Shown: positions 13,249 through 16,425 of the stretch, in pieces | Numbering within the stretch: position 1 is the first letter of the stretch | Layout: each line of letters opens with the position of its first letter | Virus record (IMG/VR): IMGVR_UViG_3300036399_001023 | From: a virus | Taxonomy: Duplodnaviria > Heunggongvirae > Uroviricota > Caudoviricetes | Direction: 5' to 3' (one strand) | DNA: 48,906 bases | Notes under the pieces: generated by a model | The model's input: only the letters and a program-made list of their open reading frames with translations | Told to the model about the DNA's origin: nothing | The model's database searches: none | Translations under genes and position numbers: made by a program

Positions 13249-16200
13249 TCAGGATAGGATGTTGGTGATCATAGCGCCAGAACCGATAAGACCAGTTGCG
13301 CCGAGGCCAACTAGGTTAACCACACGTTCAATTGTGATTTCAGCACGAACAACGCGGCGTTCACGAATGTAGTATTCGGGACGGACGGCTGGGGTGCCTG
13401 TGAGCTGATCATTTGTGTTATCATAAGGGCTCTTTATCCCTTATTTCTTCACATTTCTGTGAAGATCAGACTATATCTTCTTCCCTTTAACTTTGAGGGT
13501 TTAGGGAGTGGGGCACTCTTGTCAGCTTCATCACTGTTCTAGTGGTATGCTGTTAGTCGTTGAACGTTCGTTTTCTCCCGAAAACGCTTCGCTGCTGATT
13601 ACCATAGTTTCAAACTCTCGTTTGAAGCCGTAGGCTTCCCAGCAATTCACCCCATTGACTCGCGGATCAGGCGAGTAATTTGATGTTACCATCAAACCAC
13701 GCATTCAGCTCGTTTAAAAGAAACGATGTTGTTAGCATACGTGTAAGAGAAGGCAGGAGTCGCAGCATTCGCACCACCAGCAGGCATGATGGAATCAGAA
13801 GGACCGTTAGGGCTGTAGAACAGAAGGATACCGTTAGCTGGGAATACCGGCTGTAGGGTTCCATCTTGCGCTAAGTAACGACCTTCGGCAACACGTAGGC
13901 CACGCTCAAGACCGAAGTAGCGAGCAATGACGTCAGTGTCGACGCTGTCTGCAGATGTGTACTTGGTACGATCAAGGATCTTCTCGTTGGTCAGCAAGAG
14001 GTCAAACACGGAAGAACCGACGACTGCGGAGTTTGGACGGATACCGATTTGGTTGGCGACTGCACGCTTGAGGGTTAGAATGTCTTCAATTGGGTTAGAA
14101 GTAGCACCAGACCAGGCGGCGTCTCCAGCAACGGAGCCGTAAGCTGTCTTGAAGTTTGTCCAGGTTGTGAAACCGAGTCCGGTCTGGGAACCTGCGGTTC
14201 CGTTATAGGGCTCGTAAGGGTTGTAAGTCGCGGTGACGGAAACAGCTTGAGCAACGGTGTACTCGTAGCTGTTCATCAATCTGGACATTGCATTCCTGGT
14301 TTCGATTGCGCGAAGATCTACTTGTGCAGGCAAATTGTTATCGTAAAGGCTCTTTATCCTTTACTTCTTTCTGTTTCCAGAAAGTTCAGACTATATCTTC
14401 ACCTTTGCTAAGCAAAGGGCTGGGCGCTCGTGGACGAGTTATTGTTGTCGAAACTCATCGTCTAGTCGTTGAACCTTTTCACCACAGAAATCATAATGAT
14501 TTCTCGACGTAGTAAACTTGGCTGCTGATTGCCTGTTTCTTTAATGGAAATTCAGGGATCCCAGCAATTCACCCAGTTAATTTGTGGTTAAGCTGCCACA
14601 GCAAGAGCCAAACAACCCTCGCCAGCGTTTTCAATTCAATACTGTTATCGTAAAGGCTCTTTATCCCTTACTTCTTTCTGTTTCCAGAAAGTTCAGACTA
14701 TATCTTCACCCTTGTTAGGGTGCTAGGCGCTCTTGTCAGCTTCATCACTGTTCTAGTGGTATGCTGTTAGTCGTTGAACGTTCTCTCAGTCCCCTGAGAG
14801 TTTCGCTGCTGATTGCCTTGTGTTTCAGAGAAGTCACTCCTGAAACCGTCAGGTTTCCCAGCAATTCACCCAGTTTTTCTTTCAGTTTCTCAACTGATGG
14901 AGGCTATTGATTCAACCTCTTCAGGCAATTCCCAGGCGACCACTTCCTGCTCTAGAGCATAAGGCTCAGAGTCGTAGCGGCTTTGGACGTATGGGATGTT
15001 AGTTCCGTAAGCACGACGGAAATCGTTTATAGCAAACTGCTCCTTCCCAAATCTGAGAATTCTCCCAGCTCTGGTAGGAGTGTCAACAACCGGTGCGATA
15101 AAATTCGCAATATTTGTTGACGGAAGCATAAAACCTTGTGCAAGGGTTGTAAGACATTTGTTATCGTAAAGGCTCTTTATCCTCTACTTCTCCTTGTTTC
15201 CAAAGAGTTCAGACTATATCATACTCTTTATTACAGACATAACAGATTTAGTTTTGGGGATTCCTAACAATCTACAAAGCACAACATAAGATGGTTTACC
15301 ATTCTCTAGCCATACTTTGAGTATTTCATCGGATACACCCCATAATGGACTATCTTTTAGTCTCCAGTGGTCTCTCCCCCTAGGAAGAGAAGGGGGGATA
15401 GAGTTTCTATGACTCTCATTCCACGGGGTACCTCTCTTAGTCTCCCTCATCCTTTCAATTCTCTCTAGTAGAACTTCTTTAGAGGTGTTTCTGTAGGTTT
15501 CTTTGTTTGAGTTAGAGATTTTTTCTCTGGACTCGAAACTAAGTTTCCTATTCCTACCTGCTTCAGAAAGTTTATTACGGGTCTCTTCAGAAAAAATGTA
15601 GTTATTTTTTAGAAACTCATACACCCTAGAATTGACGAAAGCTTCGTCAATCGTGTGGGACATAAGCCAAGCAGCCCGTTGGGCTTGTTGGTTTCCCGTA
15701 AATGCTCTAAAGAGGAGCTGATGGGCTATGTAATGGGCCCTGGGTGTAAGGTAAATTAAGTTCACTTTGGCATCACTTCCTCCCATTTTAGTTGGGTGGA
15801 TGTGGTGTTCGTGACAGCATTTAAACTTTTCGAGGGAACCGAATTTTTCTAAGAAGAAAAAGTATCTGTTTAGTTGTCTGTAACTAGTGAGTCCCGGCGC
15901 TCGTGGAAGAGTTATTCTTGGGTCAGTCATCTTCTAGTCGTTGAACCTTTTTACCTAACTCTACTATAGCTAGTAAAGACCCTAAGTAAACTTGGCTGCT
16001 GATTGCCTTTTTTGCAAAAGCAAAACTAAGGTGTCCCAGCAATTCACCGGATTTTCTTTGTTAAAACAAAGCCACTCTAAAAAATGGGATCGACCCCTGC
16101 ATAAGTCTGTTGTAGCAACTTGTTATCGTAAAGGCTCTTTATCCTTTACTTCTTTCTGTTTCCAGAAAGTTCAGACTATATCATCATCTTTGCCTGAGCA

Positions 16201-16390
16201 AAGAGTCGGGCACTCGTGTCAGCTTCATCACTGTTCTAGTGGTATGCTGTTAGTCGTTGAACCTTGCCCCTATCCCTAGGGGCCTTGGCTGCTGATTGCC
16301 TATTTTGCAAAAGCAAAACTAAGGTGTTCCAGCAATTCACCCGATTTTCAATCAGAGTCACCTCTGAGTGGAACCTTTATGATTCATCAT
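13249..16390 (-). CDS. Major capsid protein, spliced: join(16390-16382, 16115-16084, 15154-14915, 14636-14615, 14330-13739, 13409-13249), 351 aa
   Basis: Joining the exons at U/G boundaries gives one open 1056-nt frame MMN|LQQTYAGVDPI|LTTLAQGFMLP..EEV|IENAGEG|PAQVDLR..SYTY|QLTGTPAV..ILS*; located between decoration and tube genes; AAGGA RBS. Confidence 0.9.
13410..13738 (-). ncRNA. Group I intron 5 of capsid gene (329 nt, ORF-less)
   Basis: P/Q/R/S present; IGS GCUGAAUGCGUG pairs with both 5' exon CACGU (P1) and 3' exon UCAGC (P10). Confidence 0.92.
14331..14614 (-). ncRNA. Group I intron 4 of capsid gene (284 nt, ORF-less)
   Basis: P/Q/R/S present; P1 GCGAGGGU/GCUCUUGC; P3 CUGGGUG/CGCCCAG. 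Confidence 0.92.
14637..14914 (-). ncRNA. Group I intron 3 of capsid gene (278 nt, ORF-less)
   Basis: P/Q/R/S present; P1 GAGGU/GCCUC; P10 UCAAU pairs with 3' exon AUUGA. Confidence 0.92.
15155..16083 (-). mobile_element. Group I intron 2 of capsid gene (929 nt) carrying an HNH homing endonuclease in the P8 loop
   Basis: P/Q/R elements at ~15930-16050, S element at ~15210; P3 UCCGGUG/CGCCGGG; P1 CCAU/GUGG. Confidence 0.92.
15214..15930 (-). CDS. Intron-encoded HNH homing endonuclease with NUMOD3-like repeats
   Basis: HEHHIHPTKMGGSDAKVNLIYLTPRAHYIAHQLL HNH motif; FSEETRNKLSEA and LSFESREKISNS NUMOD3-like repeats. Confidence 0.85.
   Translation of the reverse strand: MTDPRITLPRAPGLTSYRQLNRYFFFLEKFGSLEKFKCCHEHHIHPTKMGGSDAKVNLIYLTPRAHYIAHQLLFRAFTGNQQAQRAAWLMSHTIDEAFVNSRVYEFLKNNYIFSEETRNKLSEAGRNRKLSFESREKISNSNKETYRNTSKEVLLERIERMRETKRGTPWNESHRNSIPPSLPRGRDHWRLKDSPLWGVSDEILKVWLENGKPSYVVLCRLLGIPKTKSVMSVIKSMI
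16116..16381 (-). ncRNA. Group I intron 1 of capsid gene (266 nt, ORF-less)
   Basis: P (GAATTGCTGGAA), Q (AATCAGCAGC), R (GTTCAACGACTA), S (GATATAGTC) elements; P3 UCGGGUG/UGCCCGA; 5' exon ends in U, intron ends in G. Confidence 0.9.
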
Positions 16391-16425
16391 AATAGATGTT
16401 TCCTTGTGTGTAAAGTTGACTTCAA

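Follow-up and report, generated by a model that had tools for sequence, protein, structure and literature searches.

Mosaic group I introns with site-bound guides in the major capsid gene of an uncultured freshwater cyanophage

Phage genes interrupted by several introns are well established. Landthaler and Shub reportedly described, in 1999, three group I introns in a single gene of Staphylococcus phage Twort, orf142, and we know of no analysis of these introns at the level of their modules. Here we describe the major capsid gene in a stretch of viral DNA of 48,906 nucleotides (nt) (IMG/VR record IMGVR_UViG_3300036399_001023, Caudoviricetes; 'the window' hereafter means this whole stretch), which is broken up by five group I introns. 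The locus resembles orf142 in having several small, related, apparently self-splicing introns of the putative IA type in one phage gene, some with putative nicking endonucleases of the HNH type. It differs in extent, with five introns in the window, up to 13 in its relatives and at least 16 insertion sites in a capsid coding sequence (CDS) of 1056 nt. It also differs in that the capsid introns very probably exchange whole helices, and that they fall into two scaffold classes tied to endonuclease carriage.

Among the crAss-like phages of the Zeta group, the gene for the major capsid protein (MCP) is interrupted four times, and a whole genome may hold as many as 14 introns (PMC7886860). The Jug phages have a mean of 18.5 introns per genome, and their splicing was confirmed by metatranscriptome reads (PMC12880540). 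In both, as in the window, essential late or core genes including that for the MCP are broken up by multiple group I introns. The capsid gene studied here exceeds the crAss-like Zeta example, with up to 13 introns in one gene and 84% of the span made up of intron, and the two reports do not describe guide-specific ends combined with exchanged inner modules (PMC7886860; PMC12880540). The locus bears on two long-standing questions, by what route group I introns arrive at new sites and what keeps them there after their endonucleases decay. We present evidence that the introns of this capsid gene are mosaics, very likely produced by short-patch ectopic exchange between paralogous introns.

Five introns in an interrupted capsid gene

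The gene encodes the major capsid protein of an uncultured freshwater cyanophage whose genome is about 270–280 kb long; the record nearest to the window is G001, a viral contig of 277 kb that is 98% complete. Exon 5 matches PF03864 (Phage_cap_E) in Pfam with 38.2 bits against a cut-off of 22.9 (E=1e-9). It has 132 homologues, among them the major capsid protein of Synechococcus phage S-CBWM1, which is the closest named relative (57% identity across exon 5). In-silico splicing of the five introns yields a stop-free CDS of 1056 nt for 351 amino acids (aa), colinear with the uninterrupted homologues P0048 and P0059. The junctions were set by uninterrupted homologues reading MMNLQQTYAGVDPILTT..., ...EEVIENAGEGPAQVDL... 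and ...FSYTYQLTG.... The exons are as follows.

16382..16390, minus strand: capsid exon 1, ATGATGAAT, encoding Met-Met-Asn; the spliced product fits the MMNLQQTY... N-terminus of P0048 and P0059
16084..16115, minus strand: capsid exon 2, 32 nt, with homologue-based junctions
14915..15154, minus strand: capsid exon 3, 240 nt, with homologue-based junctions
14615..14636, minus strand: capsid exon 4, a micro-exon of 22 nt coding for (V)IENAGEG, as in uninterrupted homologues
13739..14330, minus strand: capsid exon 5, 592 nt, with the Phage_cap_E domain, assigned by PF03864 and homologues
13249..13409, minus strand: capsid exon 6, including the stop codon, with homologue-based junctions

Five matches to RF00028 (Rfam, gathering score 50 bits) were found on the minus strand within 13447-16395, four of them with 81–103 bits and the endonuclease-bearing one with 55.7 bits. 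The outer limits given in the initial annotation, 13410 and 16381, proved exact after boundary refinement. In the following list of introns 1–5 (I1–I5), each site is named by the CDS position that precedes the intron.

16116..16381, minus strand: intron 1 (site 9), 266 nt, short P6, no open reading frame (ORF); Rfam 94.3 bits; guide GGTTC at 16371-16375
15155..16083, minus strand: intron 2 (site 41), 929 nt, long P6, endonuclease gene in P8; Rfam 55.7 bits; guide GAGTGG at 16072-16077
14637..14914, minus strand: intron 3 (site 281), 278 nt, short P6; Rfam 103.2 bits; guide TAGCCTC at 14900-14906
14331..14614, minus strand: intron 4 (site 303), 284 nt, long P6, ORF-free; Rfam 91.2 bits; guide GGCTCTTGCTG at 14599-14609
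13410..13738, minus strand: intron 5 (site 895), 329 nt, short P6; Rfam 81.2 bits; guide ATGCGTG at 13698-13704

All five have a 5' splice site after U and a terminal intron G, as do all calls accepted after boundary refinement; the omega G of intron 3, at 14637, was located via VIENAGEG homology. The P1 regions and guides had been described as all different and matched to local exons, and each guide does base-pair with the exon just upstream of its intron, with U.G at the cut: GAAU/GGUUC (I1), CCAU/GAGUGG (I2), GAGGU/UAGCCUC (I3), GCGAGGGU/GCUCUUGC (I4) and CACGU/AUGCGUG (I5). Every insertion site has a complementary guide of its own, and at site 303 exon and guide co-vary among alleles. Intron 5 has a P1 extension hairpin, P2 and P2.1, and the reading frame across it is restored by T+AT, a Tyr codon.

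Folding of 43 endonuclease-free members with RNAalifold recovered P3, P4, P5, P6, P7.1, P8, P9 and P9.1 in the consensus, with double compensatory changes in 36 of its 49 pairs. P7, a pseudoknot, lies outside RNAalifold prediction and shows up solely in two conserved strands, CGACTA and TAGTC. At the P7-to-P3' position there is an insert of 30–35 nt with a covarying outer helix (alignment columns 227-230 / 253-256). This covariation identifies the capsid introns as structurally constrained ribozymes. They are in themselves ordinary members of group I, small and, to judge by the P7.1/7.2 insert, putatively of the IA type. From fold, guides and junctions, each intron is predicted to excise itself from the mRNA.

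Four short contigs (L014/L089, L090, L091 and L092) of one JGI series (3300012708, 3300012752, 3300012717 and 3300012729) code for a continuous capsid protein (P0001) and are 99.8–100% identical to the DNA allele L017. Each is without a different subset of the L017 introns, exactly at the predicted junctions: the introns of sites 93, 318 and 895 are always gone, those of sites 9 and 36 sometimes, and that of site 74, which is atypical (215 nt), is always kept. The contigs look like partially spliced transcripts of L017. From their range of JGI identifiers, the samples are presumed to be freshwater metatranscriptomes. That the site-74 intron is kept in every contig may mean that it is spliced slowly or conditionally.

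Many database 'capsid proteins' of 180–240 aa in this clade (P0008, P0014, P0017, P0022 and others) are lone exons. The capsid gene is thus systematically fragmented by gene callers, which is a practical warning for intron-split capsid genes at large.

Mosaic structure of the introns

The initial annotation had reported three shared blocks of 45, 62 and 66 nt. By exact comparison these were recovered, two of them one nucleotide longer. The 45-nt block is free of differences in all three pairs, and the longest exact matches through it are 46 nt (I1 vs I3, I1 vs I5) and 54 nt (I3 vs I5).

16217..16262, minus strand (I1): 46-nt P7-P7.1/7.2 block, identical to 14734-14779 (I3) and 13520-13565 (I5)
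16120..16182, minus strand (I1): 63-nt P7'-P9-P9.1 block, identical to 14335-14397 (I4), with one difference to 14643-14704 (I3)
16284..16349, minus strand (I1): 66-nt P3-P4-P5 block, with three differences to 15991-16056 (I2)

For comparison by domain, the introns were cut at five near-invariant core anchors, the full set of which occurs in the window at the five capsid introns only. The resulting modules S1 to S6 are given here for intron 1.

16341-16381, minus strand: S1
16288-16340, minus strand: S2
16263-16287, minus strand: S3
16209-16262, minus strand: S4
16183-16208, minus strand: S5
16116-16182, minus strand: S6

In P4-P5 (S2), introns 1 and 2 are 96% identical and the remaining pairs 68–77%. 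In P7 with P7.1/7.2 (S4), the values are 96–98% among introns 1, 3 and 5, 85% between introns 2 and 4, and 63–67% across both groups. Introns 2 and 4 do have a different P7.1/7.2 type, as had been noticed, and this is accounted for by their long-P6 scaffold, introns 1, 3 and 5 being of the short-P6 class. In the 3' domain (S6), introns 1 and 4 are 99% identical, and intron 3 is 94–96% identical to these. The P1-P2 (36–62% identity) and P6 (39–60%) regions are different in all five. Among the informative sites of the five introns, 239 of 703 pairs are incompatible. The view that the introns are mosaics is borne out, as domain identities and trees (below) are mutually incongruent.

The shared blocks occur outside the capsid gene as well. 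Altogether 35 viral contigs contain the exact 45-mer. Six of these are unrelated and AT-rich, have no capsid homologue and differ in the other intron domains; P6 stems are not conserved in these outside introns. In two such contigs (L099:~560-900 and L120) the intron with the 45-nt P7.1/7.2 block splits a tiny ORF, MWTKPAATEMRFGL...EVTMYVMNK, which may resemble a PqqA-type precursor peptide. An intron of Clostridium phage phiCP13O ends in a sequence that is 92% identical to the 3' block. There (L093, JF767208.1, 16098-17164) the 'minor tail protein' entries gp23 and gp24 probably form a single gene, interrupted by an unannotated ~1.07-kb intron whose last 64 nt give this match; phiCP34O and vB_CpeS-17DYC show the same 3'-block match.

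Viral contigs were searched with the exon-5 protein, which gave 80 loci, and a spliced aligner was used to map the spliced CDS of the window onto every one. Among the alleles, the number of interruptions runs from 0 to 13, at no fewer than 16 sites: 9, 36, 41, 74, 93, 149, 160, 191, 273, 281, 303, 318, 353, 889, 895 and 926. In distant alleles, seeming introns at CDS 1024-1055 are artefacts of aligning a divergent C-terminus and were dropped. The five core anchors are found in order in 191 of 195 interruptions. With their introns removed, the whole-gene alleles with 11 and 13 introns encode an intact protein of 351 aa, 87–95% identical to that of the window. In the alleles with 11–13 introns, exons are down to 5, 6 and 8 nt long, and the introns make up as much as 84% of the gene span.

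Module exchange was analysed in 112 introns from 15 multi-intron loci, which are phylogenetically related. Module type is bound to the insertion site for the guide module, with an adjusted mutual information (AMI) of 0.78, against 0.23 for P6 and 0.34 for P7.1/7.2 (P7.x). The guide module gave not one near-identical pair between different sites. Five to seven P6 types were found at one site among close relatives, and single types were shared by as many as 11 sites. Modules at different sites that are at least 95% identical are two to three times commoner within a locus than between loci (S3, 15.9% vs 5.8% of pairs; S4, 14.1% vs 6.9%), and for P6 and P7.x the clustering by locus is stronger than in all 200 label shuffles. 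The per-domain phylogenies proposed at the outset as a check gave incongruent trees: the site label changes 16 times on the tree of the guide module S1, where the minimum is 14, and 50–52 times on those of P4-P5, P6 and P7.x (S2-S4).

The clearest single case is intron 1. The window was compared with L010, a contig from another sample with the same five-intron architecture, and with G001. Introns 2 to 5 are 99.6–100% identical between window and L010 (introns 3, 4 and 5, 100%). Intron 1 matches the L010 and G001 orthologues at every position, the 5' half included, outside two patches, one with ~17 changes in 40 nt of P7.1/7.2 and the other with eight changes in the 17-nt P9 hairpin. The first patch is identical to introns 3 and 5 of the same gene, the second to introns 3 and 4; the second lies in the 63-nt block and is specific to the window. 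L018 and L022 carry the first patch with two single-nucleotide polymorphisms (SNPs). Point mutation cannot account for this pattern, whereas replacement of whole helices can. A further instance is the site-281 intron of G001, which bears P5 and P6 modules of the site-895 type. The recombination or gene conversion between neighbouring introns inferred in the initial annotation is the only reading that fits both the orthologue-versus-paralogue patches and the population-wide reshuffling of P6, P7.x, P8 and P9.

Some alleles differ in other respects. A 63-nt remnant of the site-9 intron is found in L012:750-848, L015 and L030, in the segment homologous to window 16116-16390. It was left by a deletion that ran from the ATGATGA of exon 1 to another ATGATGA, at the P8/J8-7 border, and reads ATG ATG ATA TAG; its 3' end (..AATG or ..GTTG) gives an in-frame start leading to MLQQTYAGV..., as in P0030 and P0046. 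The exon-5 protein of L015 (2775-3350) is 100% identical to that of the window (13739-14330) across residues 6–197, and the intron set of L015 is very unlike that of the window (the remnant at site 9, then 36, 74, 93, 318 and 895). The same exon-5 protein with another intron set points to frequent allelic recombination within the capsid gene.

Endonucleases, scaffold classes and spread to new sites

One intron of the window carries an endonuclease gene.

15214..15930, minus strand: homing endonuclease ORF, 238 aa, HNH-type with NUMOD3, in P8 of intron 2

Its product matches PHROG 655 'homing endonuclease' (E=6e-28), PHROG 12434 HNH (E=1e-5) and Pfam NUMOD3. No Pfam HNH domain was found at E<=0.01, a His-rich stretch being seen by eye only, and a PDB sequence search gave no useful match. 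Family membership and location in P8 mark it as a putative intron homing endonuclease of the HNH type. It belongs to family 3, which is confined to site 41. All 13 endonuclease families are inserted in P8 and each occupies one site, with at least 60% identity within a site and 20–42% between sites. Hopping of endonucleases between introns together with flanking modules was rejected, as the families are strictly site-specific. The identity of 20–42% between sites indicates that the colonisation of the sites is old and not a recent burst.

Endonuclease carriage goes with scaffold class. The 31 unique introns with an endonuclease all have a long P6 (46–56 nt) and the second P7.x type, the 70 introns with a short P6 (25 nt) are all without endonuclease, and 11 long-P6 introns, intron 4 of the window included, lack one (Fisher p ~1e-18 for the association, relatedness of the introns being uncorrected). 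Nine pairs of orthologues with and without endonuclease are 97–100% identical at their 5' ends (60–150 nt) and 3' ends (72–77 nt), and their centres are non-homologous in eight of the nine. A simple indel is seen only at site 303, between intron 4 of the window and the orthologue in G001 with a 216-aa endonuclease in P8. This pattern suggests that endonucleases can be lost by overwriting from a paralogue. The introns of sites 9 and 93 have P6 and P7.x modules that are 100% identical, with endonucleases that are ~33% identical. It follows that the sites were occupied long before the present RNA modules arose, which argues for continuing homogenisation.

The two classes also modify the proposal of a local proliferation of one ribozyme scaffold. 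Its local part holds in the sense that members of the same family are present at no fewer than 16 sites of this gene and, in the 277-kb G001, nowhere else. The idea of one scaffold does not, there being a long-P6 class (I2, I4) and a short-P6 mini class (I1, I3, I5). Elsewhere in G001, at ~248.7 kb (L007:1550-1700), another group I-like 3' core follows the end of an ORF, with an Rfam score of 30.9 bits that is below threshold. This signal (~248.6 kb) is the sole further group I signal there, and its scaffold differs from that of the capsid introns.

As to how new sites are reached, the P1-P2 modules are unrelated at most of them. The exons preceding sites 9 and 93 both end in GAAU, and the two introns have the guide GGUUC in common, along with a P1-P2 module that is nearly the same; GGAU/GGUCC is shared by sites 36 and 318. 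Shared guides are predicted by guide-directed ectopic insertion, and equally by selection for splicing after insertion at the DNA level. A search for a reverse transcriptase in G001, 98% complete, gave no RVT_1 match. Reverse splicing is consistent with the data; given this negative result and the equal fit of DNA-level insertion, we regard it as unproven.

A bolder possibility, which we hold to be rather doubtful, is that of a self-sustaining swarm. Endonuclease-free mini ribozymes would colonise any guide match of 4–6 nt, pool their helices and overwrite the centres of endonuclease introns, and would thereby shield the target sites of more than 10 site-specific endonucleases of co-infecting relatives. 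If this were true, it would be the first strong natural evidence that group I introns spread ectopically, directed by their guides, within a protein-coding gene of a phage, and the accumulation of up to 13 introns per gene would be the outcome of an arms race and not neutral clutter.

At site 93 of five alleles (L058:3285-3568, L061, L062, L065 and L073), the guide-predicted splice after position 93 gives an intron whose end is not G (..GTTTTGTATATTA / TTCATAGC). An alternative pair 7 nt upstream keeps U/..G and changes the protein from NIANFIA to NIILFIA.

Proposed mechanism, rival explanations and known systems

In the mechanism that we propose, the outer modules, that is P1-P2 with the guide and the 3' tail, stay with the insertion site, as they adjoin a unique exon which they must fit; the guide pairs with the final 4–10 nt of its own upstream exon. 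The inner helices P4-P5, P6, P7.1/7.2, P8 and P9 are self-contained hairpins between near-invariant core strands, and would be repeatedly copied from intron to intron by short-patch ectopic gene conversion or template switching, either within the gene or between co-infecting relatives. The core strands may serve as short homology arms. Because an end adjoins a unique exon, a conversion tract there would be homologous on one side only; because each helix brings both of its own strands, pairing would survive the swap. The site-specific endonucleases in P8, which ride only on the long-P6 scaffold, would drive presence or absence at their own sites, and the centres of their introns would often be overwritten by endonuclease-free short-P6 centres.

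Exchange might instead be purely allelic, between co-infecting variants and never from one intron to another. Alleles with 98–100% identical exon 5 do differ in their intron sets (the window vs L015 and L016), and homing endonucleases promote allelic co-conversion, as established in the T4 and SPO1 systems (PMC3984707). Yet allelic exchange cannot put one variant of P6, P7.x or P9 into introns of different sites, nor can it give 100% identical P6/P7.x beside endonucleases that are 33% identical. We consider it unlikely as the whole explanation; it probably operates in addition, spreading converted versions. Alternatively, there may have been no exchange at all, the sites having been colonised independently from a diverse pool of introns and the blocks frozen by purifying selection. 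The 45-mer in the six unrelated AT-rich contigs with their differing other domains, the 92% identity of the 3' block to the phiCP13O intron and the ancient divergence of the endonucleases of different sites all speak for such a history. It fails on the same-site orthologues that differ only by paralogue-matching helix patches, and is largely refuted by them. It fails likewise on the many P6 types per site among close relatives and the single types at up to 11 sites, on the P6 stems that are not conserved in outside introns, on the within-genome excess of identical modules and on the replaced centres in the orthologue pairs with and without endonuclease. We therefore give it only a slim chance.

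Assembly chimeras at the repeats of 46–63 nt common to neighbouring introns would also produce mosaics, as every sequence is a metagenomic assembly and the repeats reach assembler k-mer sizes. A switch between paralogues, though, would delete or duplicate exons, yet exon order and the 351-aa ORF are kept in every allele, and a patch swap requires junction k-mers found only in a real molecule. The agreement of introns 2 to 5 with the independent L010, the recurrence of the P7.x patch of intron 1 in L018 and L022, and the same module combinations across dozens of contigs from different samples also contradict this explanation, which we find hardly credible. Several points weigh against ectopic exchange itself. 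The mosaic molecules are known from metagenomic assemblies alone, and the window-specific junction of P8 with the P9 patch in intron 1 is absent from every other viral contig searched, so that the P9 conversion of the window rests on one assembly; this uniqueness also favours a chimera. The converted tracts (~17–46 nt, with flanking identity of at most 12 nt on one side) are unusually short for classical homologous recombination. The pairwise homoplasy index (PHI) on the five window introns alone is marginal (p=0.04). The P6 and P7.x combination of intron 1 is also found in site-318 introns of other alleles, so donor and direction are not assignable. Since introns of unrelated phages also conserve the 45-mer and the 3' block, their identity alone is no proof of recent exchange; the blocks are strongly constrained elements of a wide intron subfamily, and selection contributes to their identity. 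Finally, as the loci are phylogenetically related, neither the within-locus excess nor the Fisher test draws on independent samples. Even so, ectopic short-patch exchange remains very likely in our assessment.

Next to the two rDNA sites discussed below, the locus is a far denser natural experiment, with 16 or more sites in 1 kb, alleles carrying 0–13 introns, pairs of sites that share guides, 13 endonuclease families and helix-level exchange. We found no account in the searchable literature of paralogous phage introns that exchange helices, of a link between long P6 and endonuclease, of the overwriting of centres or of 13 introns in one phage gene.

The support for ectopic spread through reverse splicing is only circumstantial and comes from group I introns of nuclear rDNA (Bhattacharya et al. 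2005, PMC1299323; PMC3984707). A 2014 review found no direct evidence for ectopic spread, the best circumstantial case being related introns at two rDNA sites (PMC3984707). The capsid introns are alike in that related introns occupy different sites of one gene, each site being complementary to a guide of 4–6 nt. They differ in that the host is a protein-coding phage gene and that most sites have unrelated P1-P2 modules. Homing with co-conversion, followed by a cycle of gain, degeneration and loss, is described for T4 td/I-TevI and SPO1 I-HmuI (PMC3984707, PMC2988022). Here too the endonuclease gene lies in a peripheral loop, P8, is present or absent at the same site and belongs to a site-specific family. 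In contrast to the homing cycle, eight of nine endonuclease-free forms have a centre of paralogue type instead of a deleted or decayed ORF.

Dispersed repeats, such as rRNA operons, are known to evolve in concert by gene conversion (PMC8022953). As in these, the paralogous capsid introns are homogenised in patches, with identity higher within than between genomes. The capsid gene shows how selfish introns very probably spread and homogenise within one gene. In nature, peripheral ribozyme helices would behave as cassettes that can be swapped for one another, a point of interest for ribozyme engineering. Unlike in rRNA operons, the units are single RNA helices of 17–50 nt from which the intron ends are excluded, and the products are combinatorial mosaics, not uniform copies.

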